From NCBI GenBank assembly GCA_963760615.1, contig CAVXDX010000003.1, forward strand, positions 104,718 through 168,717: 64,000 nucleotides of DNA, given 5' to 3'. The stretch is from an uncultured Candidatus Micrarchaeota archaeon (GTDB lineage Archaea; Micrarchaeota; Micrarchaeia; Burarchaeales; Fermentimicrarchaeaceae). A program made the position numbers and the translations under genes. Each line of letters starts with the position of its first letter. The first letter of the stretch is position 1. The notes beneath the pieces were generated by a model. The model was not told where the DNA came from and did no database searches. It saw nothing but the letters and a program-made list of their open reading frames with translations. Shown here piece by piece: positions 9,412-58,543 of the stretch.

Positions 9412-10473
9412 ATGGCATTTTCACCAAGTTTCAAGGTCATGGGCATAGAAATAGAGCTGCACTGGAGCCTCCTGCTCTTGCTCCTGCTCATATTTGCTTC
9501 CGAAGGAATTGACGCCGCCCTGTCCATCCTGCTCATCTTCACATTTGTCGTTCTGCATGAGCTCTCCCACTCCTATGTTTCAATTAAAAACGGGATTGAA
9601 GTCAGAAAAATAACCCTCTTCCCAATAGGCGGCATGGCTACCATTGAGGATGTTTTCATACCCCCGGATGTTGAGTTCAAGCTCGCCATAGCAGGACCGC
9701 TCTTCAACTTTGCAGTCATCGCCATTGCGCTGCCCCTCACCCTTCTGGTAACCAGCGAGCCAATAAGCTCATTCCTCTGGATTATTATTGAGATAAATCT
9801 TGTGCTCGGAATTTTCAACCTTCTGCCTGCCATCCCTCTAGACGGGGGGCGAGTCTGGAGGAGCTGGAGAGAGAAGAAGGTTGGTCACCTCAGGGCAACA
9901 GTTGACGCTGTGAAACTCAGCAGATTTACTGCCATACTGCTCCTCTCGATTTCGCTAATAATCGGATTTGTGCAGGATGACTTCGCTCTCCTTGTATGGA
10001 ATTTCCTGATATCCGCTGTCATCTACCTCGGCTCTCAAGCCGAGCTTAGCGTCGCGCTGCTCAAGGATTCTGCGAAAGGTCTTTTTGTGAGGGATGCCAT
10101 GAATTTCTCAACTGTCTCACTGCACCCCAGTTCAACATTGAGGGAGGCATCCTCGCTGATGCATGCGACACGCTCGCCCGTAATTATTGTATCGAGCAAG
10201 CCTATAAAACTCCTCAGCTACAGGAATCTTCTGGAAATTGAAAAGAATAAGTGGGACAATGTAAAGGCACTGGACGTTGCCCAAACCTCACCAGTATGCA
10301 GCATGGACGAGCCTATCCTTGACGCATGGAAGAAGATGAAATCAGCAGATGTGCCTATACTGCCTGTTTTGTTTGATGGCGGACTTGTAGGGACAGTAAG
10401 TGAGATTGACATAGAAAAGCTCCTCGTGCTGAATAGATTGCGGGTTGATTTCCCTGAAAAGGTTGAAAACTGA
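9412..10473 (+). CDS. site-2 protease (peptidase M50) with C-terminal tandem CBS domains
   Basis: HELSH motif in a TM helix, LPAIPLDGG motif, C-terminal CBS-like repeats. Confidence 0.8.
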   Translation: MAFSPSFKVMGIEIELHWSLLLLLLLIFASEGIDAALSILLIFTFVVLHELSHSYVSIKNGIEVRKITLFPIGGMATIEDVFIPPDVEFKLAIAGPLFNFAVIAIALPLTLLVTSEPISSFLWIIIEINLVLGIFNLLPAIPLDGGRVWRSWREKKVGHLRATVDAVKLSRFTAILLLSISLIIGFVQDDFALLVWNFLISAVIYLGSQAELSVALLKDSAKGLFVRDAMNFSTVSLHPSSTLREASSLMHATRSPVIIVSSKPIKLLSYRNLLEIEKNKWDNVKALDVAQTSPVCSMDEPILDAWKKMKSADVPILPVLFDGGLVGTVSEIDIEKLLVLNRLRVDFPEKVEN

Positions 10474-23195: not shown

Positions 23196-23281
23196 GGGCT
23201 CGTAGCTCAGTAGCAGAGCGTTCGCTTGGCGAATTATTTCCAAAATGCGAAAGGCCGCGGGTGCGACTCCCGCCGAGTCCA
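23196..23281 (+). tRNA. tRNA-Ala (anticodon GGC) with a 14-nt intron at canonical position 37/38
   Basis: Acceptor GGGCTCG/CGAGTCC gives the G3:U70 Ala identity pair; anticodon stem TTCGC/GCGAA separated by loop TTGGCG + AATTATTTCCAAAA + T; discriminator A73; TATA-like CTTATTTAAAAA about 20 nt upstream. Confidence 0.8.
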
Positions 23282-26383: not shown

Positions 26384-26443
26384 TTCCCGCTGTGTAATAT
26401 TTCTAACTGGTTCTGATGTTCTGAGTGGAGGTGAGTGTATTAC

Positions 26444-27988
26444 ATGCCTGAGGTGAAGAGGGCCGTCATAAGCGTTTCTGACAAGACTGGCCTTGTGGAG
26501 TTTGCAATGGGACTCTCCAAGCTCGGGGTTGAGATAATATCCACGGGCGGAACTGCAAAAACCCTGCGTGATAATACGATTCCAGTAAGGGAAGTTTCTG
26601 ATGTAACCGGCTCGCCCGAGATGCTCGACGGGCGCATCAAGACGCTGCATCCTAAAATACATGCAGGCATACTCGCACTGAGAGGCAGGGAGGAGCATAT
26701 GCAGCAGCTGAAAGAACAGGGCATCAGGAGCATAGATCTTGTAATTGTCAACCTATACCCCTTCGAACAAACAATCTCCAAGAAGAATGTCAGGGATGAG
26801 GATGCAATTGAGAACATAGACATAGGTGGACCGACACTCATAAGAGCAGCTGCCAAGAACTATGAGAGCGTTGGCGTTGTTGTCGACCCCGCGGATTACC
26901 AGAATATCCTAAATGAGCTCAGGAAGGACAAATCCCTCTCGCTTAACACAAGGGAGAGGCTCGCAGCTAAGGCATTCCAGCATACCGCAAGGTATGATGC
27001 CCTCATATCAAACTACTTTGAGAAGAAGTTCGCTGGTGAGCTATTCCCCAAATTCTTGACATTGAGCTTTGAGAAAGCTATGGAGCTTCGCTACGGTGAA
27101 AACCCTCACCAGAAGGCTTCCTTCTACAGGGATATGGAAAGCGACGAGACATCCATTTCAAACGCTAGGAAGCTGCAGGGCAGGGAGCTCTCATACAATA
27201 ACATGCTTGATGCTGACTCCGCCCTTGAGCTTCTCAAGGAATTTGATGAGCCTGCCGTTGTGATAGTGAAGCACAACAACCCCTGCGGAGTTGCAATAAA
27301 TAGGAGTTTGAAGAATGCATACATGAAGGCAAAGGCAACCGATCCCGAGGCAGCATTCGGAGGTGTTGTGGCGCTTAACGGGACTGTAGAAGCCGAGACC
27401 GCAAGGGAGATAACCACCCTGCTGACAGATGTGGTCGTAGCTCCGGGCTACTCGAAAGAAGCGTTGGAAATTTTTGCGGGAAAGAAGAATATGAGAGTGC
27501 TGGAGTTGGGCAGATTCTCCACAAAGAAGAGGGAGAGGAGGGAGCTGAGGAGCGTAAACGGTGGTCTACTTGTTGAGGAGAGGAACACCAAGCTGCTCCT
27601 CGGGGAGCCGAAAGCTGTCACCACGAGAAAGCCAACTGAGGCAGAGATGAGAGCGCTGCTGTTTGCATGGAAGGTGTGCAAGCATGTCAAATCCAATGCC
27701 ATAGTATACGCATTTGAGGACAGGACGGTCGGCATAGGCGCTGGGCAGATGAAAAGATCTGATGCCTCGAAGCTTGGCGCCATGAAAGCGGTTGAATCTC
27801 TAAAAGGTGCGGTTCTTGCATCAGATGCGTTCTTCCCATTTAGGGATGCCGTTGATGTCGCTGCAGACGCAGGAGTTACTGCAATAATCCAGCCAGGTGG
27901 CTCAAAGAACGATCATGAGATAATATATGCCTGCAATGAGCGCAACATAGCAATGGTTTTCACTGGCATACGGCACTTCAAGCATTGA
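26444..27988 (+). CDS. purH: bifunctional AICAR transformylase / IMP cyclohydrolase
   Basis: MPEVKRAVISVSDKTGLVEFA MGS-like N-terminus, AICARFT domain; GGAGGTGA RBS 9 nt upstream of ATG 26444. Confidence 0.9.
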   Translation: MPEVKRAVISVSDKTGLVEFAMGLSKLGVEIISTGGTAKTLRDNTIPVREVSDVTGSPEMLDGRIKTLHPKIHAGILALRGREEHMQQLKEQGIRSIDLVIVNLYPFEQTISKKNVRDEDAIENIDIGGPTLIRAAAKNYESVGVVVDPADYQNILNELRKDKSLSLNTRERLAAKAFQHTARYDALISNYFEKKFAGELFPKFLTLSFEKAMELRYGENPHQKASFYRDMESDETSISNARKLQGRELSYNNMLDADSALELLKEFDEPAVVIVKHNNPCGVAINRSLKNAYMKAKATDPEAAFGGVVALNGTVEAETAREITTLLTDVVVAPGYSKEALEIFAGKKNMRVLELGRFSTKKRERRELRSVNGGLLVEERNTKLLLGEPKAVTTRKPTEAEMRALLFAWKVCKHVKSNAIVYAFEDRTVGIGAGQMKRSDASKLGAMKAVESLKGAVLASDAFFPFRDAVDVAADAGVTAIIQPGGSKNDHEIIYACNERNIAMVFTGIRHFKH

Positions 27989-30036: not shown

Positions 30037-30228
30037 ATGCTTGTTTCCAAAACTCTGAAATGCAAGGTTTTCAACCCAACAAAAAGGAAGCTTGGACTTT
30101 TAAGTAGAGAATATAATAATTTCAAATTTACCACGAATAAGCGAGAAACCCACACTCTTCAGAGGTGGGATGAAAGCGAATGTATTACATTGCAGAACAA
30201 AAAAAATTTGATGAGTGATGTTGTATGA
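30037..30228 (+). pseudogene. tnpB: truncated N-terminal fragment of a TnpB (IS605 OrfB) gene
   Basis: KTLKCKVFNPTKRKLGLLSREYNNF matches the conserved TnpB N-terminus; the ORF is interrupted after about 40 aa by the left end of the intact element (hairpin at 30149-30169). Confidence 0.5.
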
Positions 30229-31282
30229 TACTGACTTTCAAAATAAGACACAACAAGGATTTCAGCAATGAGTTAAGGAAGGCAAAACAGATAGCGGAGT
30301 GTGCAGTAAAAACAAGAACGCAGTCAAGTAAGGATGTCAAGCAATTTGGATTGAAGTCCATAATATCAAACCAAATCTTAAGAAAATATTCAAGAAACAA
30401 GAGGGTTAAGGATGTGAAGAATGTCAATCTGACCATCCCCAGTCAGGGAATAACGCTTGACAAGAAACACAGGGAAATCAGGATACCGTCATTGAAGTTG
30501 TCTCTTGGATACAACTTCCGAGATTTTGAAAAGATAAACCAGATTGAGATAGACAAAGAATATGCATTCATCTCTGTGACAGTCAGGGAGATGCCCCAGA
30601 TAAAACCTGATGTCTGGCTGGGTATAGACAGGAATACAACAGGACATGTTGCCGTCATGGCAAACCCCCAGACAGGCAAGGTATTGAAGCTGGGAAAGGA
30701 GGCTGGGCATATACATAGCAAATACAAAAGCATGAGGAGAGAATTGCAGAAAAGCGGCAAATACAGAAAGGTAAAGGAAATCAGGAACCGTGAAAGCAGG
30801 ATTATCAGGGATTTGAACCACAAGATGGCAAAGAAAATTGTAGAAGTTGCAGAGGAGAACCATGCAGGATTGAAACTTGAGGATTTGAAAGGCATAAGAA
30901 GCAACAGGAAGCATAAGAAGGGATTCAACTACAATTTGCATTCCTGGTCATTCTTCCAGCTTCAGAAGTTCATTGAATACAAGGCAAAACTTCATGGCGT
31001 TCCGATAACCTATGTAGAGCCTGAAAACACATCAAAGGAGTGCTCAAGGTGTGGAAGCATAGGAATTAGGGAAGGAAAGAACTTTAAGTGCCAATGCTGC
31101 GGACACGTTGACCATGCTGATGTGAATGCATCGTTCAATATTGCATTGCGTCAAGGCATAGGTCAGTTGCATGCAGACAGTGATGCATGCAAAGGGAGTA
31201 CTGATACCCCTAAAGATGCAACGTTGATGAACGACAACGACTTCAGAACCCCACATGCTTTAGCGGTGGGGGTATGTCAGAA
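30141..31282 (+). mobile_element. IS200/IS605-family (IS1341-like, tnpB-only) insertion element
   Basis: Left-end hairpin CCCACACTCTTCAGAGGTGGG (30149-30169), tnpB ORF, right-end hairpin CCCACATGCTTTAGCGGTGGG (31249-31270) followed by GGTATGTCAG; tnpB reads through the end into flanking DNA for 7 codons. Confidence 0.6.
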
Positions 31283-31301
31283 AAAGTATTTTATTAAGTA
31301 A
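30225..31301 (+). CDS. tnpB: TnpB (IS605 OrfB) RNA-guided endonuclease-type transposase accessory protein
   Basis: N-terminus TFKIRHNKDFSNEL, RuvC-I WLGIDRN, RuvC-II E in EDLKG, zinc finger CSRCG...CQCCGHVDHADVNASFNIA. Confidence 0.85.
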   Translation: MILTFKIRHNKDFSNELRKAKQIAECAVKTRTQSSKDVKQFGLKSIISNQILRKYSRNKRVKDVKNVNLTIPSQGITLDKKHREIRIPSLKLSLGYNFRDFEKINQIEIDKEYAFISVTVREMPQIKPDVWLGIDRNTTGHVAVMANPQTGKVLKLGKEAGHIHSKYKSMRRELQKSGKYRKVKEIRNRESRIIRDLNHKMAKKIVEVAEENHAGLKLEDLKGIRSNRKHKKGFNYNLHSWSFFQLQKFIEYKAKLHGVPITYVEPENTSKECSRCGSIGIREGKNFKCQCCGHVDHADVNASFNIALRQGIGQLHADSDACKGSTDTPKDATLMNDNDFRTPHALAVGVCQKKYFIK

Positions 31302-34017: not shown

Positions 34018-34539
34018 CTAAGAATACCTGATAACCAGCGTTCCATTGACAAATTTAACCGCTCCTGTTTTTACTTCGGTATAAGTGACATACATGTTCC
34101 CGTAATAGATGTCGCCAACTGATGCATTGGGAACGCTCCAGCCATCCTGCCCCGTGCATATGACGATGTTCCCGCTGTTTCCGCCTGCTATGTAGTTCCT
34201 CTCCCCATTCGTTATAAGAACTGGGTTGCTAAGAAGCGGCATCACAGAAGGGTTGCCAATTCTGCTTGTGCACACGAAGGAAGTTATGTTTATCAATTTC
34301 CCGGTGTTCTGCACTAGCGAAATATCCAGTATGCCGTCTCTCCTGAGAGCTAGCGGTTGGTAGCACGAGAAGTTCCCATGAAACTCGCATACTCCATAAA
34401 ACGTTTGCACTGTAGGCACAGGCGTGTAGGGAGTGTTGAGGTAAAGGTATACCACAAGCAGAATTATAAGTGCCGAGGCAAGTCCGATTTCCCTGTTGGT
34501 CGCCTGTCCCCTTTTCATGCACTCAACTGCCGTAGCCAA
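34018..34539 (-). CDS. archaeal type IV pilin-like protein
   Basis: MKRGQATNREIGLASALIILLVV class III signal peptide. Confidence 0.55.
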   Translation of the reverse strand: MATAVECMKRGQATNREIGLASALIILLVVYLYLNTPYTPVPTVQTFYGVCEFHGNFSCYQPLALRRDGILDISLVQNTGKLINITSFVCTSRIGNPSVMPLLSNPVLITNGERNYIAGGNSGNIVICTGQDGWSVPNASVGDIYYGNMYVTYTEVKTGAVKFVNGTLVIRYS

Positions 34540-35305
34540 GTGTAACTTCGAACGGTCCGCTTGTCACCCCGGAAACGCTTGCGGTGACTACTGTATATCC
34601 AGTGGTCATCAAGAAAGCATGGGCAGTTCCGTTCACCGTTGGCGAATAATCATCTATAACTCCTATGGGAACATGGAAATGCACGAGCGTTCCGTCAGGT
34701 AATGGGTTTCCAAATGAATCAGTCACAGTAGCGGTTATATTCACGAACTCAGTCCCACCCGCAGTGTAGTTTCCTTTACTGCCTACTACTATATACTTCG
34801 GGTTTGGCGCGTAGGCAGGCGCCAGGCTTATGACAATCATCCCGTTTATATTCTGGGCGTACATCTGCCCGCCGGAGAAGCTGTAATTGCTCCCCTGCAG
34901 CACATACCCATAAGGTGTCCCATCAGGCAATGTGGCAACTATGCTGGGCACAACGACAACGTTGGTGGTTATGACAGGAAATGAGTGCGAGTAGTTCACA
35001 GTCCCAAGGCTGAATTGAATGTCAACGCTTTTTGAGATGTTATTCAGTATGATTGTATAGGGTGTAACGCCATCAAGCATAACTGGGTATATAATTTTTC
35101 TTGAGTAACCTGTGCCTGATCTAGCAGCAAGATTCAGCTCAGATGCAAACTGCTCGCCAACGCTATCAGCCAAGGCTTCTTTTGAACGTTCCATCTCTGC
35201 TGAACGCTGCTGGCTGAAGTTCGCCACAAAGATTGTGAAAATCAGCATTACGAACATGTATATGACCAGCAACTCGTTAGCGCTCTGACCCTTTGAGCTG
35301 ACCAT
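34523..35305 (-). CDS. archaeal type IV pilin-like protein
   Basis: MVSSKGQSANELLVIYMFVMLIF class III signal peptide. Confidence 0.55.
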   Translation of the reverse strand: MVSSKGQSANELLVIYMFVMLIFTIFVANFSQQRSAEMERSKEALADSVGEQFASELNLAARSGTGYSRKIIYPVMLDGVTPYTIILNNISKSVDIQFSLGTVNYSHSFPVITTNVVVVPSIVATLPDGTPYGYVLQGSNYSFSGGQMYAQNINGMIVISLAPAYAPNPKYIVVGSKGNYTAGGTEFVNITATVTDSFGNPLPDGTLVHFHVPIGVIDDYSPTVNGTAHAFLMTTGYTVVTASVSGVTSGPFEVTLGYGS

Positions 35306-35313
35306 GCTACCAC

Positions 35314-35775
35314 CTAACTCCTCTCAATGTAAACGCAGTTCTGCGTCGGATCAACCTGTGTGCAGTTGTCCTCAGCATATATCTTTATGAAATATGTTCC
35401 AGGCCTGGCTATTGTCGTAAGGTCCCCCGCGATATCCGTCACAGTCCATCCAACTATCTGCGTGGTGCCGGCACTTGTTCTCAGCGTGATCACCACTTCA
35501 TGCCCTATTCCTCCAGTAGCATTCCCAACTGATATACTGCCCACATTCTGCGGCATGAACACCTGTATGCTCATCTTTGCAGGGTATCCCTGCGCCCCAA
35601 CAACGTCGGCGTAGTTGGCTATCTTTGTTGCGGTCTGCTGGGCTTGCTGTATGGCAAGCTGGTCTGCCACATTAGCGCTTTGCAGGTATGCTATGAGAAG
35701 AAGAGGGAACATTATGGTCACTACAAACGCAACAGTTATCATTATCTCTGTGCTTGCCTGGGCCTTTACCCTCAT
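35314..35775 (-). CDS. archaeal type IV pilin-like protein
   Basis: MRVKAQASTEIMITVAFVVTIMF class III signal peptide. Confidence 0.55.
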   Translation of the reverse strand: MRVKAQASTEIMITVAFVVTIMFPLLLIAYLQSANVADQLAIQQAQQTATKIANYADVVGAQGYPAKMSIQVFMPQNVGSISVGNATGGIGHEVVITLRTSAGTTQIVGWTVTDIAGDLTTIARPGTYFIKIYAEDNCTQVDPTQNCVYIERS

Positions 35776-35803: not shown

Positions 35804-37165
35804 TTAAGCTTTTGGTAGAACGAGCCTCAGAGCAAGTCTCACAACCTCCCTTGCGCTGTTACCGAATATTATCAGAGAGGGTTCCTTGCCAACCTCCCCC
35901 CTGTGGTACACCACATCTGGGATGCCTTTTGCTCTTCTCACAGCGCTCCCTATGCCCCATGGAATAGTTGCACCTTCCTTTCTTTTAACGCTCCTCGGCT
36001 CCTCGCTCCTATCGTAAAAGGAGATTTTCAGCCTCATTTTCCTGCAGCTCTCCAAATTCCCTTCACTGAATCTTACATTCACCGCTGCTCTCCTAGAGCT
36101 GTCAAAATCCATCATCCTGAGCACAGCCCTGGCAAGGTGGGAGGAGGCCCCGAATCTCACCTTCCCGAGAGACCTTGGCTTTCCCATGGCATTCCTCACT
36201 CTGCCGACCACCCCGGCCACGTCTTCGATGCCTCTTGCGTCAGGAAGGGCGTAGACTATGTTCATGCCAACCTCAGGGATGAGGGAAGAGAGCTTCTCGT
36301 GCTTTTCAATATCATCCAGTGCAGCTTCCACATCGCTGATGACTGCGCATCTCACCCCCTCCTGCATAAGCTTTGCCATGGGCTCAACCGCTTCAATGCC
36401 TCTTCCAATCTTCACGCTGTTGCCTAAAGCATCATCAATGAACTTCTCGCTTATCTCAAAAGCATCCTCAATTCCAAGCCCTTTTGCAAGGGATGCCGCA
36501 AGTGCTGATGAGAAGCAGCAGCCTCCTCCGTGTGTTCCAGTTGCAATCCTATTCTTTCTGAAAATCCTGAATTTTTCGTGCAGTGTGACATCGCTTATCA
36601 TCCTGCCATCACTCACTCCTTTAATCACAACAGCTTCCGCCCCACTGGCTACAAGGATTTTAGCTGCCCTCCTCGCATCACCAATACCTCTCACCCTTAC
36701 CCCGCTAAGTTTCTCTGCCTCAAATGAATTCGGGGTAACTATCCTGCAGAGTTTCAGCAGTATTCCCATACTCCTGATGCTTTCACTCTTGATGAGCCAG
36801 CTTGAGTCGGACTGGGCGGTCATCACAGGGTCCAGCACAATATTTCTTGCTTTCCATTTCCTCAGCCCCTCCAAAACTGCCCTTGTTATCCCGCTGTCGC
36901 CAAGCATCCCTATCTTTACTGCCCTCACTTTCATATCAGAAAAAACAGAATCAATCTGTTGCGATATCGCATCAGGAGGCAGGTAAAAGATTTTCTGGAC
37001 TCCCTTTGTATTCTGTGATGCTATAGCAGTTATTACCGCTGCCGAATGCACACCGAGAGCTGCGAATGTCTTAACGTCAGCTTCCACGCCAGCAGCTCCT
37101 GTCGTCGAGGAGCCGCCTATAGTTAATGCAATAACCGGCTCCGGATGAGCAGTCACCCTATCCAC
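35804..37165 (-). CDS. thiDN: bifunctional ThiD (HMP/HMP-P kinase) - ThiN (thiamine-phosphate synthase) protein ThiDN
   Basis: N-terminal ThiD ALTIGGSSTTGAAGVEADVKTFAALGVH; about 450 aa, length typical of archaeal ThiDN. Confidence 0.75.
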   Translation of the reverse strand: MDRVTAHPEPVIALTIGGSSTTGAAGVEADVKTFAALGVHSAAVITAIASQNTKGVQKIFYLPPDAISQQIDSVFSDMKVRAVKIGMLGDSGITRAVLEGLRKWKARNIVLDPVMTAQSDSSWLIKSESIRSMGILLKLCRIVTPNSFEAEKLSGVRVRGIGDARRAAKILVASGAEAVVIKGVSDGRMISDVTLHEKFRIFRKNRIATGTHGGGCCFSSALAASLAKGLGIEDAFEISEKFIDDALGNSVKIGRGIEAVEPMAKLMQEGVRCAVISDVEAALDDIEKHEKLSSLIPEVGMNIVYALPDARGIEDVAGVVGRVRNAMGKPRSLGKVRFGASSHLARAVLRMMDFDSSRRAAVNVRFSEGNLESCRKMRLKISFYDRSEEPRSVKRKEGATIPWGIGSAVRRAKGIPDVVYHRGEVGKEPSLIIFGNSAREVVRLALRLVLPKA

Positions 37166-38253
37166 CTTTCAGTCTTCCTGCGGTTAGTCTTTGTCCTGTC
37201 AACCCTGCCCTCTTTCTCCTTGTGGAGTATTTTTTCCATCTCATCCAGAAATGCCTTCAGAGCCTTCTCCAAATTCCAGCCGAAGGAACTTGCAGTGAAT
37301 ACTATTCCCCTTCCCATCAATCTCCCGTGTACAGAGTATTTTTTCCCATGCTTCTTGAAGTGGAGCGATATATAATCGACATCAAAGCTCTTCTTGAGCT
37401 TGCTGAGCATCTTCCTAACTTCCTCGTTTATATCCTCAACAAGCATCTTATCATTCTCCTCCAGCCCCGAGATATAAATCCCGATTTCCTCTGGCTTGAC
37501 CAGTGATGAGAAGAGGTCTCTTGCGCTGATGATTCCAACCGGTTTTCCGCCGCTCTCAACTATTAGCGTAGCAACATCTCCCTCTATGAGCTTCTTGGCG
37601 CTCTCGCTCAGACTCTCCTCAGGCTTTATGGTGTATACATCCTCTCTCATTATTGAGGAAATCTCAATGTCGTCAATATTACTCTTGCTGCTTCTCAGCG
37701 GCAGCTTATCCTTGGGCTTGTCAAGCAGGTTCGCCAGATCATATGCGGTGAGGACACCGGCAAGCTTTCCCTCCTCAGTAACGGCAAGTTTTCCGTACTG
37801 GTTGCCGTACATCCTTGATTTCGCTTTCCCCAGTAAAGTTGTGCTCTCTACCCTTGGAACCTGCCTGTCCATTACATCTTCAACTTTCATCCTCTCAAGA
37901 AGTTTCCGCTCCATCAGAATGCGCAGCACATCATTCCTCGCAAGAACCCCCACAAGTTTGTCATCATCCATCACCGGCAGCGCCCTGTACGGTCCGCTGA
38001 AGAAAAGCCTGCATATGTTGATTATGCTTGTTTTCTTCGTTATCGTGGGAGCATGTATGGCGATGTGACCGACCTTGGCGCTGGGCTTTGCAGCTGAGCT
38101 GATAAGCGTCCAGTCGTCAACTATGCCAACGTATTTCTTATCCTTCACAACAACTATGCAAGTCTTATGCCTCGGAAGCTCGCTTATAGCCCTTGTTATA
38201 GACTCTTCGGAGTCAAGCGTAAAAGCATCCTTTATCATTTCAAAAGGCTCCAT
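37153..38253 (-). CDS. 4xCBS-domain protein with C-terminal RaiA/HPF (ribosomal S30AE)-like domain
   Basis: Four CBS repeats; C-terminal segment KKSFDVDYISLHFKKHGKKYSVHGRLMGRGIVFTASSFGWNLEKALKAFLDEMEKILHKEKE parallels the HPF/YfiA core (…[28 protein letters not shown]…). Confidence 0.5.
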   Translation of the reverse strand: MEPFEMIKDAFTLDSEESITRAISELPRHKTCIVVVKDKKYVGIVDDWTLISSAAKPSAKVGHIAIHAPTITKKTSIINICRLFFSGPYRALPVMDDDKLVGVLARNDVLRILMERKLLERMKVEDVMDRQVPRVESTTLLGKAKSRMYGNQYGKLAVTEEGKLAGVLTAYDLANLLDKPKDKLPLRSSKSNIDDIEISSIMREDVYTIKPEESLSESAKKLIEGDVATLIVESGGKPVGIISARDLFSSLVKPEEIGIYISGLEENDKMLVEDINEEVRKMLSKLKKSFDVDYISLHFKKHGKKYSVHGRLMGRGIVFTASSFGWNLEKALKAFLDEMEKILHKEKEGRVDRTKTNRRKTERWIG

Positions 38254-38304
38254 GTCTTCACCCCTCCATATTATTTAAAAGGGCAATAAATTAATACTGT
38301 TTGC

Positions 38305-39285
38305 ATGAAAGCATCCGAGCTTGGCGAGAGGAAGCTTATAGCACTCCTGATTAGAGGGCTCTACAGGAACCGGAGGGTGCTTGTTGGGGCAGGGGAGGAC
38401 GATGCAGCCCTCATAAGCTTTGGGGATAAAGAGCTTGTTGCGAAATCAGACATAATGTTCAGGTCAACGCACTTTCCAAGGGGGATGAAGCCCGAGGCTA
38501 TTGGGAGGAAGGTGGCGGTTGCAAACATAAGCGATTTGGCTGCCATGGGTGCATCTCCGCTTGCCACCCTTTTCTCATTCGGCCTGCCGCCCAGGTTTGA
38601 TGTTTCAGAATTCGCCAGAATAATCAAAGGAATAAATGCAGTCTGTATTGAATACGACGCCCCCTACGTTGGAGGTGATACCAAAAAGGCAAAGGAGCTG
38701 AGCATATGCGGCATTGCCCTCGGAGAAATTGGAAGAGGCGAGGCGATAAGAAGATGCAATGCGCGTGCCGGGGATGTTGTCGCGGTTACCGGTGAAATAG
38801 GAGATGCCGCGCTTGGCTTGGAGATACTTCTGAAAGGAATGAAAACCGGTAAATACGGCAAACTTGTCAATGCATTCCTCAACCCCTCGGCAAGGGTGAA
38901 GGAAGGCAGGGTAATAGCCCAGTGCAAAATAGGAGCTGCCGGTATGGATATAACAGATGGGTTGTTCTTCTCTGCAGGAGAGATAGCCCGCATGAGCGGA
39001 GTTTGTCTCTCGCTTGACAGGTGGAGCATACCCATTTCGAAGGAAGCTAGGAAGTTTGCAGAAGAGCATAATGTGAAGGAAAACTATCTTCTGAACAACG
39101 GAGAGGACTACGAACTTATCGTGACCATAAAAAGAGAGAGATTTGAAAAGGTCAGGAGCAAAGTTGAAGATGTTGGTGGCTCGCTAATGCAAATTGGAAA
39201 TGTCGTAAGGGGAAAAGGGGTTCTCATTGATGGAAGAAGGGTAAAAACTGCAGGTTATGACTCTCTGAACTATCCCGGAGCATAA
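38305..39285 (+). CDS. thiL: thiamine-monophosphate kinase
   Basis: AIR-synthase-related fold, GEDDAALI N-terminal motif, 326 aa. Confidence 0.8.
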   Translation: MKASELGERKLIALLIRGLYRNRRVLVGAGEDDAALISFGDKELVAKSDIMFRSTHFPRGMKPEAIGRKVAVANISDLAAMGASPLATLFSFGLPPRFDVSEFARIIKGINAVCIEYDAPYVGGDTKKAKELSICGIALGEIGRGEAIRRCNARAGDVVAVTGEIGDAALGLEILLKGMKTGKYGKLVNAFLNPSARVKEGRVIAQCKIGAAGMDITDGLFFSAGEIARMSGVCLSLDRWSIPISKEARKFAEEHNVKENYLLNNGEDYELIVTIKRERFEKVRSKVEDVGGSLMQIGNVVRGKGVLIDGRRVKTAGYDSLNYPGA

Positions 39286-48747: not shown

Positions 48748-51700
48748 ATGATGAAAAAATTGGTTTTTTTAACGGTCTTCCTACTTCTCATGACTCCTTC
48801 ATCTTATGCTTCTTTAACCTACCCAACCTCACCAAAAGGCACACCAAGAATTTCAAAGCAGTATATGATGCCTGCCCCAACAATCTACACGGTAAATGGC
48901 CTTTACCAAATAAACATGACAGGCCTGAGCGACTTTGACCGTCCCGGTAAACCCATTCTTCCTTTTAAGACCGTCAGCCTGCTTCTGCCTCTTGACCAAT
49001 CATTTAACAGCGTCGAGGTGATTCCTAGCCAAAGAACAGAGATAGGAAACTATAAAATCAACTATGGCAGAGTAGAACTGCCTTTGAACTGGGGTTCCGA
49101 TGCTTATGTAACGAAAAAATTCTCGAATGTAACAACAGTAATAAATCAAACTGTCTATTCTCAAAACAGTGAGTATCCCGGAGTGCTTTACTCTGTAGGA
49201 TCAATCTCAATCTTCAGAGGCTATAAGATAATTATTGTAAATCTTTATCCTGTTCAGTATATACCCAGCACAGGAGAAGTCTACTATTTCAAATCAATTA
49301 CTGTCAATGTTTATACAGATAATGTTACGTCAATCCCATCTACCTTCAGAGGCCTTGACACAGACAAGGCAGATGTTTCATCTATGGTAAGTAATCCTGA
49401 GGATATTGTTACATACAATTCTTCATATAAGTATGTTCCATCTAAAAACGAGTTTGGAACCGCCTCTCTAACTCCGGCCCAATGGGACTACGTTATCATA
49501 ACCTCAAGCAGTCTTGCAAGTGCTTTCCAACCACTACTTGATTACAAGAACTCTCAGGGTATCAAGACAACCATAGAGACTGTTGAAAACATTTACTCCA
49601 AATATTCTGGCAAGGATCAGCAAGAGCAGATTAGGAATTTCATCAAGGATGCTTACACAAACTGGGGCATCAAGTATGTTCTTTTAGGCGGTGACGGTTC
49701 TGGAGTAAATGTCGGAGGAGAGAGCGGGGTCAACATAATTCCAACAAGATATTTGTATCCTAGATTTAGTCAGGCAGACGATGCAATCCCATCTGACATT
49801 TACTATAGCGATCTAGAAGGCTCATTCGATAGCAATGGCAACGGCTATTACGGCGAGCCAGGAGATGGATGCGATATCAATCCATCCACTTGCGAGGTTG
49901 ATTTGTATGCTGACGTCTATGTCGGCAGAGCAACAGTTGCTAATGTTCAGGATGTTAATAATTTTGTTTCAAAGACTATTGCTTATGATTCTGAAAGCAT
50001 AAGCGACCCTCACAAGGGCGAGGCATTGATGGTTGGTGAGTATCTTGGCTTTGGAGGCGTTGCAAACTATGCAACTAATAGCAAGGAAGAGGTGAGGCTA
50101 GGCTCGAACCAGAACGGCTATACAACAGCAGGTTTCTATCCGGGCTACTCTGTAGATCTGATGTATGACTCCCCTGCTCACACCTGGTCAAAGGATGACT
50201 TGATTTCAAAGATCAATAACAATTCCGCCAACATCATCAATCATCTCGGTCATGGCAGCACTTTATGGGTTATGAAGCTCTGCAACGCTCCTTACTCACA
50301 ATCAGGTCCTTACTGCGGAGACAGCGGTGTCACGGATCTCAGCAGTCTTAGCAACACGAAATATTTCTTTGCCTACAGCCAAGCATGCTATTCAGGAGCA
50401 TTTGACAACTGGAATTATCAAGGTATGTACACAATGTCCGATTCAATAGCAGAGCATCTTGTCAAGGATGCTCACGGCGCTTTCGCTGTGGTAATGAATA
50501 GCAGATATGGGTGGGGTCAATTATTTTCTACTGACGGTGCGTCAGAGAGATATGACAGGCAGTTCTTCGATGCAATCTTTGGGCAGAACATCACAGAGTT
50601 GGGTAAGGCAAATACATACTCGAAGGAAAAGAACATCGGCTATCTATCTTCATCCGATCCAGCTGAAGCAGGCGTGATGAGATACGTCTACTACGAGACA
50701 AACCTTTTAGGAGATCCGACTACCCAGCTGCAGACAGACTATACAAAGCCTCAAGCTCTTATCACATCTCCGCAAATGGATGACATTTCTTACGGCTCAA
50801 TAAATGTCAGTGGGTATGCAAAAGCGGGTAAAGCAGCAGGTTCGACATTTAGGAACTATAAAATCTTTTACGGCACTGGAATGTTTCCTACTGTTTGGAA
50901 TTCTACTGGCGTGACTTTGGTTAACTATGGGTTGAGACCTGTGGACAATAATAGTCTGGGAACGATTGATACAACTCTTTTTTATGATGCGGACACTGAT
51001 TTTACAGGATGGGATTATTACGCCTATTATTGGGGAAGTGGTGCCGGTGCTTATTCAATCAAGCTGGTAGTTTACGATAACCTCGGAGCATCAACTGAAA
51101 GTATAACTCGTGGTGTTGGAGTTCATAATATAGTGCTGAACCAGCCAATGCCAAGAGATGTCTTAGGACCGATAACTGAAATAAAAGGGACTGTTTCAAG
51201 CGGGTATGCCAATCCTCTTACATCTTATAGTATTGTATATCAGCCACAAAATACTACGGGATGGTCTGCGAGTGGAATAACACTAACTAACAGTGGAACA
51301 CAGCCTGTTTATAACGGTGTCTTGGGAGTTTTGAACGCCGGTGGATTAAATACTGGATGGTATACCTTTAGATTAATAGCTGTTTATACGTATAATACTA
51401 AAATGCAGACCATAGAAAATGTTTATATTGATACAACCTTAAGACCTGGTTGGCCGCAAAGAGTTTATTTTCAAGGTATAGATAATCCTTACTTTTGGAC
51501 TTCCCATATTGTTTCAAGTGGAATTAATATCAGCAATCTTAAAAACTTGAGTATTAATTTAAGCTCATATGGTAAAATTGCCCCAGGAGGTAATATAGTA
51601 AGTAGTGTAAATTACCCTCTTTATAATATATCTAGTTTATCATCTGGATTTGTCAGTCCTTATCAGCCAGGAAACTTTGAGCCAGTTGTTAGCGATATCA

Positions 51701-54270
51701 ACGGTGACGGCAAGGATGAAATAATAGTTTTTCAACCAGGAGAGAATACTGCTAGTTTTGGACAAGAAGTCCCAGGAATAATATCTGTTTTCAGTCAAGA
51801 TGGAACACTTTTATATAATTGGTCTATACCAAGTCCTACTATTCCGCCTGGTGGTCTTGGTACCCCTTTAGGTGGAATGGGTTCAGTGTGGCTTCCACCA
51901 TTTGCAGTTGCGCCTCCTTCTGTTGCAAATATAGACGGTGATAATGATGAAGAAATTGTAATCCCAGTTGCTCCTGCCCCTACAGAAGTTGCTACTTTAA
52001 ATGTTTATGAATATAACGGCACATTATTAAAAACTCTAGATTCTTCAAGAGATAATTATGATTTTAGGAATGAGCCTCTAATAGCAAATTTGTTCAATAA
52101 TGGAACTATGTATGTTGTAAAAAAAGTTGATTATTGCGAAATAGAGCAGCCTCAACCGAACGTACATGAATGGGATGCTTGCTTGAAAGTTTATGACCCT
52201 CAAGGGAATATGCTAAACGGTTGGCCTGTTTCAACCAAGCCTTCCGCCGGAGCGCTAATAATGTTTGGAAAAGTTAATCCAAATCAAGTTGTTGGTCATT
52301 TTGAAAACAATAAGAACTCGGACATTGTCGACTTTTCTACTGTTCATTGGAATCCTCGGGGTAATCGTGATGGCCTTAAACTCACTGTTTATACGCCAAA
52401 CGGAACCATTCTCCCAGGATTTCCTGTTGTATGGGATGACGGTCTTATCCACACAGCCTCAGACCCTGTTGTAGGAGACATTAACAGGGATGGAAAAGAT
52501 GAAATAATTTTTGTTCATAATGGCGGTACTCTAACTGCCGTAGATAGTAATGGCAATACACTGTGGACTCAGAATTTTCAAGTGCAAGGAGCAGGAGGTA
52601 ATACTTATCAGTATTCAAAATCTCCTGCTTTGATTGATATTAATCATGACGGTTATCTAGAGATTGTATTAGTAACAGGTAGTCACGAATACATCGTAGA
52701 TCATACAGGAAATATTATTAAAGATTTTATAATAGCATATGGTGTTAGTAATATGGCAACTGCCCAATTTGATGATAATGCTGCTCCTATAACCGAAAAG
52801 TCACCTGTAGTCGTTGATTTGAATAATGATGGCGTTTCTGACATTTTGACAACATCACAGAATTGGGAAGCTTATAATGGTGGAGACTTTGTCGGATTTG
52901 ACGACATTCAAGAGATTCATGCCTTCAATCCTTTGGACATTAATAACAGCTCATGTTTTGACAGTAATAATGTATACCTGTGCGAAAAGAAATACTTTCC
53001 AGGTTTTCCAAAAATTATGGAATCTTCAATTTTCTTTTATGCATCTCCAGTGATTATTAATAAGGATGGAAAGGTTGAAATAGTAGCAACTTCAAGTATG
53101 GATGACCTTTTTAAAGGAAGAGCAAGCATCTATGTTTGGGATACTAACATAACTTATGGACCAGAAGCAGCATCGTGGCCTATGTTCCAGCACGATGAGA
53201 TGCATACTGGCAGGTTTGTATTCCCACTAACTCTAGTCCAATCCGTCAATCCCGCATCCGGAACTGCAGTTGCACCGGTCACACCAACATTCATCTGCGG
53301 TTATTATGACACAAATAATGCTCCAATACTTGGAGCCAGTGTTAATGTCACCATTGACTCAAATATTCACACTGCAACCTACAACTCAACTACTGGTGAT
53401 TACCGCTATTCAGGCCTGACGCTCACTACGGCAACCCATAAATGGTACTGCAGTGCGTCAGCATCAGGATACAACACCAAGATAGGTGCTAACCAGACGT
53501 ATCTTTTTGTAACCCCCATGCCGGTAGCAGCCCTCAAAGGAGGCCCAAACGGACAGCTATATGTCCCCAACATAACAGGCATCAATTACCTGAAAGTGGA
53601 TTTGTGGTGCAACATGAGCAACACAGACTGCCAGTTTATTGGCGGCAGGCAATACTGCGGTTGCACACGCATGCAGTGCGACCAGACAGGAGCCACTGCG
53701 GCAAACCGACCATACCCAACAATAACAAACTGGCCGGACGGCAGGATTAACCTGCAGGACACAATGTTTGAGAACCTCAATTTCGGTCAGAACGAAGGCA
53801 TGCCTGCCTGGAACTACACGGCAGACTGTATTCCAGACAGGAGGACTAACCTGCAGGATACTGCTGGTGCAAGCTACAGATTTGGAGCAATAGGCGGAAC
53901 CTATTCCAACAACACTGCAAATATAAAAGTCCTTTTCAACAATGACCCAAGCTTCAAGATGCCCGATGTATACGGATACATACAGATTCCTTCAGGTGCT
54001 GTGAACTTCACTGTATATAACGGAACAAAGCCAGTGATGGCGCTGGTGACATTCTACAACAGCTCAATCTTATACCAACTCGCACCTGCAACCAAACCAA
54101 GCACTCAAGTCCAGACAACAGCTCTTATGGCACCAACCGTTGAGATGCCGGTAGGAAACACATGGACGATGGCAGTGGTTCTCATAGCAATAATAGGCTT
54201 GGTGATTGGCTACTTCATCCTAAAGGAAATTCTGTACATAAGCGTCCCAAGAAAAAAGAAGAGAAAGTAG
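48748..54270 (+). CDS. giant secreted surface protein: peptidase C25 (gingipain-like) domain + FG-GAP/beta-propeller-like repeats + C-terminal TM anchor
   Basis: Signal peptide MMKKLVFLTVFLLLMTPSSYA; C25-like segments YVIITSSSLASAFQPLLDYKNSQGIKTT, YVLLGGDGS, INHLGHGS (His) and YSQACYSGAF (Cys); repeated DINGDGKDEII/DINRDGKDEII/DLNNDGVSDI; C-terminal TM + KKKRK. Confidence 0.7.
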   Translation: MMKKLVFLTVFLLLMTPSSYASLTYPTSPKGTPRISKQYMMPAPTIYTVNGLYQINMTGLSDFDRPGKPILPFKTVSLLLPLDQSFNSVEVIPSQRTEIGNYKINYGRVELPLNWGSDAYVTKKFSNVTTVINQTVYSQNSEYPGVLYSVGSISIFRGYKIIIVNLYPVQYIPSTGEVYYFKSITVNVYTDNVTSIPSTFRGLDTDKADVSSMVSNPEDIVTYNSSYKYVPSKNEFGTASLTPAQWDYVIITSSSLASAFQPLLDYKNSQGIKTTIETVENIYSKYSGKDQQEQIRNFIKDAYTNWGIKYVLLGGDGSGVNVGGESGVNIIPTRYLYPRFSQADDAIPSDIYYSDLEGSFDSNGNGYYGEPGDGCDINPSTCEVDLYADVYVGRATVANVQDVNNFVSKTIAYDSESISDPHKGEALMVGEYLGFGGVANYATNSKEEVRLGSNQNGYTTAGFYPGYSVDLMYDSPAHTWSKDDLISKINNNSANIINHLGHGSTLWVMKLCNAPYSQSGPYCGDSGVTDLSSLSNTKYFFAYSQACYSGAFDNWNYQGMYTMSDSIAEHLVKDAHGAFAVVMNSRYGWGQLFSTDGASERYDRQFFDAIFGQNITELGKANTYSKEKNIGYLSSSDPAEAGVMRYVYYETNLLGDPTTQLQTDYTKPQALITSPQMDDISYGSINVSGYAKAGKAAGSTFRNYKIFYGTGMFPTVWNSTGVTLVNYGLRPVDNNSLGTIDTTLFYDADTDFTGWDYYAYYWGSGAGAYSIKLVVYDNLGASTESITRGVGVHNIVLNQPMPRDVLGPITEIKGTVSSGYANPLTSYSIVYQPQNTTGWSASGITLTNSGTQPVYNGVLGVLNAGGLNTGWYTFRLIAVYTYNTKMQTIENVYIDTTLRPGWPQRVYFQGIDNPYFWTSHIVSSGINISNLKNLSINLSSYGKIAPGGNIVSSVNYPLYNISSLSSGFVSPYQPGNFEPVVSDINGDGKDEIIVFQPGENTASFGQEVPGIISVFSQDGTLLYNWSIPSPTIPPGGLGTPLGGMGSVWLPPFAVAPPSVANIDGDNDEEIVIPVAPAPTEVATLNVYEYNGTLLKTLDSSRDNYDFRNEPLIANLFNNGTMYVVKKVDYCEIEQPQPNVHEWDACLKVYDPQGNMLNGWPVSTKPSAGALIMFGKVNPNQVVGHFENNKNSDIVDFSTVHWNPRGNRDGLKLTVYTPNGTILPGFPVVWDDGLIHTASDPVVGDINRDGKDEIIFVHNGGTLTAVDSNGNTLWTQNFQVQGAGGNTYQYSKSPALIDINHDGYLEIVLVTGSHEYIVDHTGNIIKDFIIAYGVSNMATAQFDDNAAPITEKSPVVVDLNNDGVSDILTTSQNWEAYNGGDFVGFDDIQEIHAFNPLDINNSSCFDSNNVYLCEKKYFPGFPKIMESSIFFYASPVIINKDGKVEIVATSSMDDLFKGRASIYVWDTNITYGPEAASWPMFQHDEMHTGRFVFPLTLVQSVNPASGTAVAPVTPTFICGYYDTNNAPILGASVNVTIDSNIHTATYNSTTGDYRYSGLTLTTATHKWYCSASASGYNTKIGANQTYLFVTPMPVAALKGGPNGQLYVPNITGINYLKVDLWCNMSNTDCQFIGGRQYCGCTRMQCDQTGATAANRPYPTITNWPDGRINLQDTMFENLNFGQNEGMPAWNYTADCIPDRRTNLQDTAGASYRFGAIGGTYSNNTANIKVLFNNDPSFKMPDVYGYIQIPSGAVNFTVYNGTKPVMALVTFYNSSILYQLAPATKPSTQVQTTALMAPTVEMPVGNTWTMAVVLIAIIGLVIGYFILKEILYISVPRKKKRK

Positions 54271-57438: not shown

Positions 57439-58302
57439 CTAACCCCAGGGGGATATACCCACCAGCCTCATCATTATCAGGTATTTCACAAGCGGGAAGA
57501 GCAGAAGGTAAAATGGGGCCACCAGGGGTATTGCTATTCTGAAGCCGGCGAGTATGGAGCCCTGCGAGAGCAGCAGGACCAACAAGCCTGGCACTATGCC
57601 AGTGAGGAATATGAGAAATATGGAATATTTCACTGATTCATTCGTGTATACTGATATGGAGCTCCTTCTTGAAGTCTCAATTTCTCTTATGAAGCTCTCA
57701 AGGACATTCACTATGTTGACACCACTCCCCATCGCATAGCTCAGTGTTGCGACAAACCTCTGGAAAGTAACCGAGGGGGTCCTCATGGAAATCTCCACGA
57801 ATGCATCGCTTATTTCCTCCCCTTCCTTGATTCTCACCAGGCTCTGCCTGAACAGCTCGGAGACGACACCATAATTCTCTCTTGCGATGGACTCTATTGC
57901 ATCATGCAGCGGTATGCCCGAACGCAGTTCTGAAAGCAGATGTCTCAGCGAGTCAAGCAGGTTCAGGTCGACATCCCTCTTCCTGCTGTTCACTATGAAA
58001 TCAAAATAGCTGACTGCCATAAATGTTGAAACAAAAAGCATTATAAGAGAGAGAAAGAGAGCGAGGTAAATGGTGAATTGAAAGTAGGCTGCGATAAAAG
58101 AAAAATAAATCGCTGAGAGCACGAATGAAGTTACTCCCACACCAACTACAAATGAGGAATAACCCCCGGGCGTTATATCTATGCCAGACTGCAGTATCCT
58201 TAGCTTGGTTGCCCTTGAAGTGGGTATCACCCTCTGCGGGTTTATACCGAGTTTTGAGAAAATCTTTGACCAGAACGCTGAGAAATCCACTACAAAATCC
58301 AT
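57439..58302 (-). CDS. TadC/FlaJ-like (T2SS F-domain) membrane platform protein
   Basis: 287 aa, T2SSF-like cytoplasmic domain (LRHLLSELRSGIPLHDAIESIA) flanked by TM helices. Confidence 0.65.
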   Translation of the reverse strand: MDFVVDFSAFWSKIFSKLGINPQRVIPTSRATKLRILQSGIDITPGGYSSFVVGVGVTSFVLSAIYFSFIAAYFQFTIYLALFLSLIMLFVSTFMAVSYFDFIVNSRKRDVDLNLLDSLRHLLSELRSGIPLHDAIESIARENYGVVSELFRQSLVRIKEGEEISDAFVEISMRTPSVTFQRFVATLSYAMGSGVNIVNVLESFIREIETSRRSSISVYTNESVKYSIFLIFLTGIVPGLLVLLLSQGSILAGFRIAIPLVAPFYLLLFPLVKYLIMMRLVGISPWG

Positions 58303-58306
58303 AGGC

Positions 58307-58543
58307 TCACTTCAGGATACTCTTTATCCTTGGCATGAATTCCTCCCTCTTGTTCCTTGGGGTGTTGTAGTATGCGTGAATCACCTTTCCGACATCAAAG
58401 AAATTCGTTATGCCGTTATTCGCAAGGTAGTTCAACACCTGCGCCCTCCTTTTGAATTCATCGCGGAGTTCCCCCTCTGTAAGATTGAAGCTCTGGGCGT
58501 ACTTATTCAGCGTTTTTGAGGGGTATCGGCCGAACACTCTCAA
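58307..58543 (-). CDS. small hypothetical protein in the secretion-ATPase operon
   Basis: 78-aa ORF filling the 200-nt gap between the ATPase and tadC; overlaps the ATPase 3' end by 41 nt. Confidence 0.3.
   Translation of the reverse strand: MRVFGRYPSKTLNKYAQSFNLTEGELRDEFKRRAQVLNYLANNGITNFFDVGKVIHAYYNTPRNKREEFMPRIKSILK

Follow-up and report, generated by a model that had tools for sequence, protein, structure and literature searches.

A probable HibA/AHA-type ribosome hibernation factor with a short beta2-beta3 hairpin, encoded between thiL and thiDN in a Micrarchaeota archaeon

The window, by which we mean the whole 64,000-nucleotide stretch of Micrarchaeota DNA analysed here, carries a complete hibA-like gene at 37153..38253 (- strand), an ATG-to-stop open reading frame (ORF) encoding 366 aa plus stop. 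The preliminary description had placed an ORF at exactly these coordinates, which the ORF list bears out, and the peptide that it quoted lies within the translation. The protein is identical to a 366-aa hibA-like product present in public collections (P0001). Measured against three orthologs, dN/dS is 0.07-0.11 in the CBS module, 0.12-0.19 in the HPF core, and ~0.11 over the whole gene. Purifying selection acts on both modules, and the gene is therefore not a chance ORF. Pfam gives no match other than CBS and S30AE in the protein. No second HPF-type or CBS-module factor was found in the window; the only other CBS ORF there (9412-10473) encodes a site-2 protease.

The gene lies between a divergent thiL, across a 51-bp gap, and a downstream thiDN, whose GTG start overlaps the hibA stop codon TGA in the tetranucleotide GTGA (37153..37156, - strand; seen in the sequence and in the genes called for an identical contig in public data). 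The same 4-nt overlap is found in a 49%-identical ortholog, and the thiL-hibA-thiDN arrangement is kept in six Micrarchaeota genomes and around orthologs of only 47-49% identity. The gap to thiL contains two putative signals that we read by eye, a TATA-like TTTTAAATAA (38271-38280, - strand) and a Shine-Dalgarno-like GGAGGGGTGA (38258-38267, - strand).

Residues 1-254 (37492..38253, - strand) make up a module of four tandem CBS domains, as had been proposed: Pfam CBS matches four stretches (E = 9.2e-38), and the AlphaFold2 (AF2) model matches CBS tetrads. Foldseek of the full-length model against the PDB returned the tetrads of SriA, MJ1225, AMPK-gamma, and Dri, with E down to 5e-20; 9sr9 and 9l96 were absent among the matches listed. 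With a CBS-only profile, P. abyssi HibA ranks first (122.8 bits), followed by the 9l96 protein (110), SriC (105), and MJ1225 (102.5). By these profile scores, the module is classed as HibA type rather than Sri, Dri, or CM-3 type, with a modest margin over Sri. CBS3 and CBS4 carry canonical G-h-h-[ST]-x-x-D motifs that are conserved in the family, GVLTAYD (G166-D172) and GIISARD (G240-D246); their counterparts in the alignment with P. abyssi are GLVTLHD and GILTVKD. With these ribose-phosphate motifs, the CBS3/CBS4 pair would most likely bind AMP, ADP, or ATP, and we predict that the module serves as an adenine-nucleotide sensor and as the large-subunit-binding part of the protein.

A loop inserted in CBS3, residues 177-197, LDKPKDKLPLRSSKSNIDDIE (37663..37725, - strand), is the counterpart of the "PTC loop" of P. 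abyssi HibA, a long CBS3 insertion at residues 190-207 whose role is described in the HibA report (PMC13324472). The two align over P. abyssi residues 186-208 with a 3-residue gap, the loop here being the shorter. Across the family, P180 and K190 are invariant and K183 and P185 nearly so, and K181, K183, and K190 align with P. abyssi R190, K192, and K202. The position of P. abyssi Tyr195 is Leu in this protein and Phe in most close relatives. The loop is disordered in the AF2 model, with pLDDT <50 at residues 185-190.

The C-terminal domain (37210..37482, - strand) has the HPF/RaiA fold, as its Pfam match to PF02482, AF2 topology, Foldseek, and hhalign all indicate. The Ribosomal_S30AE match at residues 273-348 falls just below the gathering score of 23.7 in the full-length protein (23.3 bits, E = 1.1e-4) and above it when the C-terminal 112 aa are scanned without the CBS part (26.2 bits, E = 1.3e-5); this model is matched by seven of 15 family members. 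Because the CBS tetrad dominated the full-length Foldseek search, we modelled and searched the C-terminal domain separately. The isolated model (pLDDT 80) again has the HPF fold, not a different one, and its best 28 PDB matches are all HPF/RaiA/YfiA/pY proteins, led by Vibrio cholerae HPF (E = 1.8e-6, TM 0.78-0.80, rmsd 2.2-2.3 Å). Profile-profile comparison also places the similarity above noise: hhalign against E. coli HPF gives E = 8.3e-5, and the best four matches of the C-terminal profile in the PDB are E. coli HPF and HI0257 (E = 0.005-0.05). The RaiA/HPF-like domain noticed in the preliminary description is thus real, and only its outline needs redrawing. The topology in the AF2 model is beta258-262, alpha266-287, beta292-302, beta305-314, beta317-325, alpha328-360, so the beta-alpha-(beta)3-alpha pattern holds for the domain, but the stretch quoted for it covers beta2-beta3-beta4-alpha2 only, with beta1 and alpha1 upstream, and the domain starts near residue 258 rather than 280.

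After the HPF core comes only an 18-residue basic tail, residues 349-366, GRVDRTKTNRRKTERWIG (37156..37209, - strand), with seven K/R against two D/E; it has low pLDDT, and R359 is nearly invariant in the family. Pfam found no long-HPF C-terminal dimerisation domain, the domain that drives 100S formation, in the protein. The equivalent tail of P. abyssi HibA is reported to contact h23, uS7, uS11, and eS28 on the mRNA exit side (PMC13324472).

The two modules occur together in a family that has been characterised experimentally in 2025-2026. HibA is described for P. abyssi (PAB0961, PDB 9sr9 series) and T. barophilus (hibA), with a cryo-EM structure, an AMP Kd of 12 µM, inhibition of translation, and a phenotype upon deletion (Madru et al., Nat Commun 2026, PMC13324472). 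AHA is Haloferax volcanii HVO_2384, for which two bound AMP are reported, along with a deletion strain that loses viability (Souza et al., bioRxiv 2026, PMC12934967). Both are said to bind AMP, to obstruct the mRNA/tRNA sites, and to preserve ribosomes (PMC13324472, PMC12934967). A full-length profile of our protein aligns with P. abyssi HibA (chain 9sr9_H) in one collinear stretch, residues 10-362 against 14-387, at E = 2.3e-39; the chain was confirmed as HibA by its residue numbers, which match the contact table of PMC13324472. The 9l96 chain likewise aligns with the CBS part as well as with the C-terminal domain (E = 1e-35). When the C-terminal profile is compared by hhalign with the C-terminal domain of P. 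abyssi HibA alone, the match is weak (E = 0.13), so that kinship with HibA is supported chiefly by the CBS module, the collinearity, and the shared fold. That this domain scores better against E. coli HPF than against the C-terminus of P. abyssi HibA is most simply explained by the hairpin indel and fast divergence. An exhaustive HMMER search using just the C-terminal domain yielded 383 cluster representatives, mostly 350-400 aa long with the domain at ~255-365; CBS domains are carried by 117 of 149, and several close homologs are annotated automatically by JGI as "ribosome-associated translation inhibitor RaiA."

Based on these results, we conclude that the product of this Micrarchaeota (DPANN) gene is very probably a ribosome hibernation factor of the HibA/AHA type. 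The architecture, fold, and family membership are those of HibA/AHA, while ribosome binding, nucleotide binding, and a physiological role would follow from the characterised homologs. The preliminary description started from the general view that archaea have no HPF, which has been out of date since October 2025 (bioRxiv 10.1101/2025.10.11.676729); HibA/AHA is reported in about 47% of archaeal genomes (PMC13324472, PMC12934967), and the genome list surveyed for HibA includes Fermentimicrarchaeum (PMC13324472). The earlier idea of an energy-sensing, ribosome-silencing factor appears correct but is no longer new, and it draws support from the HibA and AHA reports on homologs of the same architecture (PMC13324472, PMC12934967), from which it may be extended to this protein. 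In P. abyssi HibA, AMP or ATP is described as having no clear effect on ribosome binding (PMC13324472), so that "energy sensing" is mechanistically unestablished even there.

The neighbourhood raises a different reading, in which this CBS-domain protein regulates thiamine metabolism, sensing an adenosyl ligand and working on or together with ThiDN and ThiL, and the HPF-like domain has some other purpose. The position between the two genes, the GTGA stop/start overlap, and the persistence of the arrangement in six genomes and in orthologs of 47-49% identity would all fit. These genomes belong to one lineage, however, in which synteny may be plain inheritance, and co-transcription in compact genomes need not mean shared function. 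This reading also fails to explain why the C-terminal domain is folded like HPF and why the protein is collinear with a structurally proven ribosome binder, and the available parts of the HibA and AHA reports give no thiamine link (PMC13324472, PMC12934967); we consider it very unlikely. We give hardly any credence to a CBS-module transcription regulator like HhpR (CM-3 family). Two cluster members are named "predicted transcriptional regulator" by JGI, and the NCBIfam HhpR model (NF053603) matches in part at E = 4.8e-11, but it scores 42.4 bits where the cut-off is 520, the CBS module lies nearer to HibA than to other CBS families, and the fold of the C-terminal domain is that of HPF, no DNA-binding domain having been found in the protein. 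Equally improbable is a generic double-stranded-RNA-binding-like module targeting non-ribosomal RNA, since the Foldseek matches to Dicer and Loqs dsRBD-containing chains that suggest it (E = 2e-3 to 0.1) rank below the 28 hibernation factors with fewer residues and lower TM, sequence-level matches are specifically to S30AE/HPF, and homologs of the same architecture are reported on ribosomes (PMC13324472, PMC12934967).

As a HibA/AHA-type factor, the protein departs from P. abyssi HibA in a short beta2-beta3 hairpin, H302-G303-K304-K305 (37339..37350, - strand). Two "archaeal-specific" insertions are described in the HPF domain of HibA, beta13-alpha11 and beta14-beta15 (PMC13324472). The first is largely present here, with three residues more than E. 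coli HPF and one fewer than P. abyssi. The second is absent: an insertion of ~6 residues in P. abyssi HibA and the 9l96 protein corresponds to a 6-residue gap against 9sr9_H and 9l96_a, and the hairpin is of bacterial length, aligning with E. coli HPF without a gap. Of 96 non-redundant full-length relatives, 39 have the short hairpin too. In P. abyssi, the hairpin insertion is reported to contact uS12, G530, and A1492, and E323-V328 are listed with G496, A1461, and uS12; in vitro inhibition is described as unchanged after both insertions are deleted (PMC13324472). The insertions are a descriptive and not a defining feature of HibA/AHA. Since the hairpin is short, the P. abyssi-type contacts to uS12, G530, and A1492 are probably missing in this short-hairpin subtype. 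Of the 53 P. abyssi ribosome-contact residues, six are identical, 12 similar, and seven without counterpart in the 366-aa protein; residue-by-residue transfer of the contacts was dropped, conservation being too low to be informative. Many P. abyssi contacts are reported to be made through the backbone or by beta-augmentation with uS19, in an HPF domain that evolves fast (PMC13324472). The idea that short-hairpin domains are more bacterial-like or ancestral was also set aside: a crude phmmer comparison of E. coli HPF with the 96 non-redundant full-length members lends it no support, the medians being 6.8 vs 5.4 bits with a Mann-Whitney p of 0.23.

Judged by its homologs, the protein would lodge the HPF/RaiA-fold domain and the basic tail behind it in the mRNA/tRNA channel of the small subunit, while the N-terminal CBS tetrad, joined by a short linker, would contact the large subunit and extend its CBS3 loop toward the peptidyl-transferase centre. 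A single protein could in this way fill the tRNA sites (A, P, and E), keep the 70S ribosome together, block translation, and protect rRNA in an idle cell, and nucleotide at CBS3/CBS4 may couple the factor to energy status. The short-hairpin subtype would depend on the rest of its surface, like bacterial HPF. We raise only tentatively, as a reading we think rather unlikely, that the Micrarchaeota protein represents a distinct "compact" HibA subtype, which has a hairpin too short for the uS12, G530, and A1492 clamp of P. abyssi and silences the ribosome through partly different, more HPF-like contacts, and that translational coupling to thiDN hints at co-regulation of dormancy and cofactor metabolism in a host-dependent DPANN lineage.

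The preliminary description independently recovered a real and important protein family from raw sequence alone. The biological addition is small, as the structure, genetics, and phylogeny of HibA/AHA had already been described. It places a full-length HibA, and not just an HPF-like protein standing alone, in the reduced genome of a DPANN archaeon, shows that the "archaeal-specific" decoding-centre hairpin insertion is missing in a large fraction of the family, and reveals a conserved thiL-hibA-thiDN arrangement in a Micrarchaeota lineage. The origin of archaeal HPF is disputed, with early transfer from bacteria (PMC13324472) set against descent from LUCA (PMC12934967) in the two reports. If the compact-subtype reading is true, the hairpin indel placed on an HPF-domain phylogeny could bear on this dispute.

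Compared with known systems, the likeness to AMPK gamma and MJ1225 is confined to the sensor module, a four-CBS disc with adenine-nucleotide sites (Foldseek E = 1e-15 to 1e-17); those proteins are not ribosome factors and lack an HPF domain. SriA-D of Methanosarcina acetivorans (PDB 9znf/9zng/9zni) and Dri of Pyrobaculum calidifontis (PDB 9e6q/9e7f) have homologous, ribosome-binding CBS tetrads and are hibernation factors without an HPF domain, with CBS scores <=105 bits against 122.8 for HibA. Bacterial HPF/RaiA (YfiA, pY; PF02482) shares the fold of the C-terminal domain (TM 0.7-0.8, rmsd 2.2-3 Å) at only ~18-23% sequence identity, with equal hairpin lengths, a gap-free alignment over beta2-beta3-beta4, and E. 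coli signature positions in the hhalign alignment (K285=K26, F290-D291=F31-D32, A321-S322=A63-S64, G325=G67, D337=D79). Unlike our protein, bacterial factors are standalone (~95-113 aa) or have a C-terminal dimerisation domain, and none has an N-terminal CBS tetrad. AHA, set beside this protein by its published description, and the 9l96 protein have the same 4xCBS + HPF architecture, with a CBS tetrad that is AMPK-gamma-like in fold. In the available accounts, two-AMP binding is shown for AHA only (PMC12934967). The 9l96 protein, an unnamed haloarchaeal-type CBS protein of 406 aa (PDB 9l96/9l98/9l9c/9l9v) for which our literature search found no paper, exceeds ours by 40 residues and carries the hairpin insertion. 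Among HibA/AHA proteins, the available accounts show binding to the 30S mRNA/tRNA channel and the 50S subunit, inhibition of translation, and preservation of 70S for three members only, those of P. abyssi, T. barophilus, and Hfx. volcanii. Relative to P. abyssi HibA, our protein is of DPANN origin, is 26 residues shorter, lacks the hairpin insertion, has Leu for Tyr195 in a PTC-loop counterpart three residues shorter, and keeps few identical contact residues. It nevertheless has the same two modules in the same order (366 vs 392 aa), a CBS3 loop at the PTC-loop position, and canonical nucleotide motifs in both CBS3 and CBS4.

The hibA-like ORF at 37153-38253 (minus strand; ATG start, 366 codons) contains the peptide quoted in the preliminary description, which had proposed four CBS domains fused to an HPF-like C-terminal domain, beginning at about residue 280. 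This fusion is confirmed, with the C-terminal domain actually starting at ~258. In the full-length window protein, Pfam CBS matches four stretches (E 9.2e-38), and Ribosomal_S30AE (PF02482) gives a single match at residues 273-348 (profile positions 12-85 of 88; E 1.1e-4), at 23.3 bits marginally below the curated gathering threshold of 23.7 bits. To exclude CBS signal from the result, we built a C-terminal alignment (A2) from residues 255-366, excised from the window protein and 14 homologs. Scanned alone, the window piece scored 26.2 bits against PF02482 (E 1.3e-5), over the gathering score, and seven of the 15 isolated pieces matched. The A2 profile, searched against all PDB sequences, placed E. 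coli HPF (three variants) and H. influenzae HI0257 in the top four (E 0.005-0.05), with unrelated proteins next at E > 0.2; hhalign of A2 to E. coli HPF was above noise (E 8.3e-5 over 78 columns, sheet without internal gaps). The predicted structure of the domain also has the HPF fold: the first 28 Foldseek matches in the PDB were all ribosome hibernation factors (HPF, RaiA/YfiA/protein Y, plastid pY, or mycobacterial MPY), led by V. cholerae HPF (E 1.8e-6, TM 0.78-0.80, rmsd 2.2-2.3 Å), and chains containing dsRBDs ranked below them. Since the isolated-domain Pfam, profile, and Foldseek results all point to HPF, the assignment withstands both tests that the preliminary description had named as able to refute it, structure prediction and profile comparison.

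Public collections already contain a protein identical to the window protein, and we found 16 homologs (47-87% identity) in Micrarchaeota metagenome-assembled genomes, several of which carry the JGI pipeline label [quoted passage not shown] The earlier premise of an absence of HPF from archaea no longer holds, as HibA and AHA have been described, with the earliest public report in October 2025 (bioRxiv 10.1101/2025.10.11.676729). HibA was discovered by cryo-EM on ribosomes from stressed cells; its C-terminal domain sits in the 30S mRNA/tRNA channel, its CBS module takes three alternative positions on the 50S, and a "PTC loop" inserted in CBS3 extends to the peptidyl-transferase center (PMC13324472). 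The same report describes CBS-module affinity in the order AMP (Kd 12 µM) > ADP > ATP, inhibition of in vitro translation by the protein, and decreased 70S pools with delayed stationary-phase recovery upon hibA deletion in Thermococcus barophilus. It detects the family in 47% of the 4026 archaeal genomes surveyed, with every major lineage represented; because its genome list has 130 Micrarchaeota entries, including two Fermentimicrarchaeum, the lineage lies within the surveyed set. An independent preprint on AHA of Haloferax volcanii reports two bound AMP molecules at the junction of CBS3 and CBS4, a viability defect upon deletion, and 3160 homologs across 17 archaeal phyla (PMC12934967).

Among solved structures, the top sequence matches of the window family are not bacterial. 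The full-length profile (A1) matched PDB 9sr9 chain H (392 aa, eight entries) in one collinear stretch, positions 10-362 to residues 14-387 (E 2.3e-39); we identify this chain as Pyrococcus abyssi HibA because the residue numbers in the HibA contact table fit its sequence exactly. The second-best match, PDB 9l96 chain a (E 1e-35, with the CBS and C-terminal parts as separate pieces), is annotated as a "CBS domain-containing protein" of 406 aa; it shares the 4xCBS + HPF-like layout and is also in 9l98, 9l9c, and 9l9v; no paper citing these entries was found in the literature searched. With the CBS module alone (A4), HibA again ranked first (122.8 bits, one stretch spanning the CBS3 loop as well as the four CBS domains), ahead of 9l96 (110) and the CBS-module proteins SriC (105), MJ1225 (102.5), and Dri (88). 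Like HibA, the window protein has the CBS3 loop (residues ~177-197), shorter by three residues than its P. abyssi counterpart; it is disordered in the model yet conserved among relatives, with P180 and K190 invariant and K183 and P185 nearly so. The canonical ribose-phosphate motif is kept in CBS3 (GVLTAYD) and CBS4 (GIISARD), aligned to GLVTLHD and GILTVKD of P. abyssi. A basic tail of 18 residues follows the HPF core, as in HibA, where the tail contacts h23, uS7, uS11, and eS28 (PMC13324472).

We searched 1.84 billion cluster representatives exhaustively with HMMER, using only the C-terminal profile, and 383 proteins matched at E <= 0.001. The best 150 of these are mostly 350-400 aa, with the domain at ~255-365, and standalone proteins of 90-160 aa are a minority; Pfam CBS was found in 117 of 149 scanned sequences, and PF02482 was reached individually (E < 0.001) in 52. 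Measured against three orthologs, the window gene has a dN/dS of 0.07-0.11 in its CBS module and of 0.12-0.19 in its HPF core. Based on the CBS ranking, CBS3 loop, CBS motifs, basic tail, HMMER relatives, and dN/dS, the window protein is a new, uncharacterised member of the now well-described HibA/AHA family, and the original interpretation, a putative energy-sensing ribosome-silencing factor, is supported.

The gene neighborhood prompts another reading, that of a thiamine-pathway regulator. The hibA stop codon overlaps the GTG start of thiDN (35804-37156, minus strand) by 4 nt (GTGA), and thiL (38305-39285, plus strand) is divergent from hibA across a 51-bp gap in which TTTTAAATAA resembles a TATA box and GGAGGGGTGA a Shine-Dalgarno sequence. 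Related loci occur in six GTDB representative genomes, all Micrarchaeota, including Candidatus Fermentimicrarchaeum limneticum, whose genome is complete (63% identity), and the closest, isolate Sv368 (87%). All six keep the order thiL, hibA, thiDN, three small genes, and dcd on the opposite strand, and the thiL-hibA-thiDN core is retained in Micrarchaeota orthologs of 47-49% HibA identity. A thiamine role is improbable; the linkage may be mere synteny inherited inside one lineage. The small genes (34018-35775, minus strand; 173, 260, and 153 aa) lie downstream of thiDN; the N-termini of the 260-aa and 153-aa products (MVSSKGQSANELLVIYMF... and MRVKAQASTEIMITVAF...) look like class III (type IV pilin-like) signal peptides of archaea, and a Big_1 Ig-like domain is weakly matched in the 260-aa protein.

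Elsewhere in the 64-kb window, we found no second HPF-type ORF and only one other CBS-bearing ORF, a site-2 protease. PurH (26435-27988, plus strand; AICARFT/IMPCHase, E 8e-122) is most simply a purine-biosynthesis gene; PurH with aEF2 is mentioned as dimerising 50S subunits in Methanosarcina acetivorans (PMC13324472). The 1840-aa ORF at 48748-54270 (plus strand) combines a Peptidase_C25 domain of the gingipain type (E 5e-63) and the propeptide of that domain with FG-GAP repeats; for a small DPANN genome this is a very large protease, probably secreted or located at the cell surface. Unusually, a type II/IV secretion ATPase (PilB/ArlI-like, 674 aa; 58503-60527, minus strand) is fused at its N-terminus to 4Fe-4S ferredoxin-type domains; it adjoins a T2SSF-type membrane protein (57439-58302, minus strand). 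A TnpB/Cas12f1-like ORF (30225-31301, plus strand; TNB domain, E 2e-22) adjoins a ribosomal protein cluster (L7Ae, S28e, L24e) and NDK. An 86-nt tRNA (23196-23281, plus strand) found by Rfam (56.3 bits) and not reported by ARAGORN may be intron-containing or otherwise atypical, and a replication origin might lie near the Orc1/Cdc6 gene (6520-7734, plus strand).

The window protein differs from P. abyssi HibA and the 9l96 protein in its HPF domain. In those two, the beta2-beta3 hairpin is longer by about six residues, whereas the window protein and its relatives lack them and match the hairpin length of E. coli HPF. In P. abyssi, the inserted E323-V328 touch G496 (E. coli G530), A1461 (A1492), and uS12 (PMC13324472 contact table); since these contacts are made by the missing insertion, this short-hairpin subtype presumably lacks the HibA-type clamp on the decoding center. 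The short form is not rare, occurring in 39 of 96 non-redundant full-length relatives (long form, 56) in a sample biased toward the query type. A crude comparison of phmmer scores gave no support for short-hairpin domains being systematically closer to E. coli HPF than long ones (p = 0.23). HibA without both "archaeal-specific" insertions is reported to inhibit unchanged in vitro (PMC13324472); the window protein retains most of the other insertion, which lies between beta1 and alpha1. Because the 53 P. abyssi contact residues are poorly conserved (6 identical, 12 similar, 7 unaligned) and the C-terminal profile alone matches the HibA C-terminal domain weakly (E 0.13), we infer the ribosome-binding mode from fold and family rather than residue identity. 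What is left as new is the compact hairpin subtype, together with the linkage to thiamine genes in a DPANN lineage.
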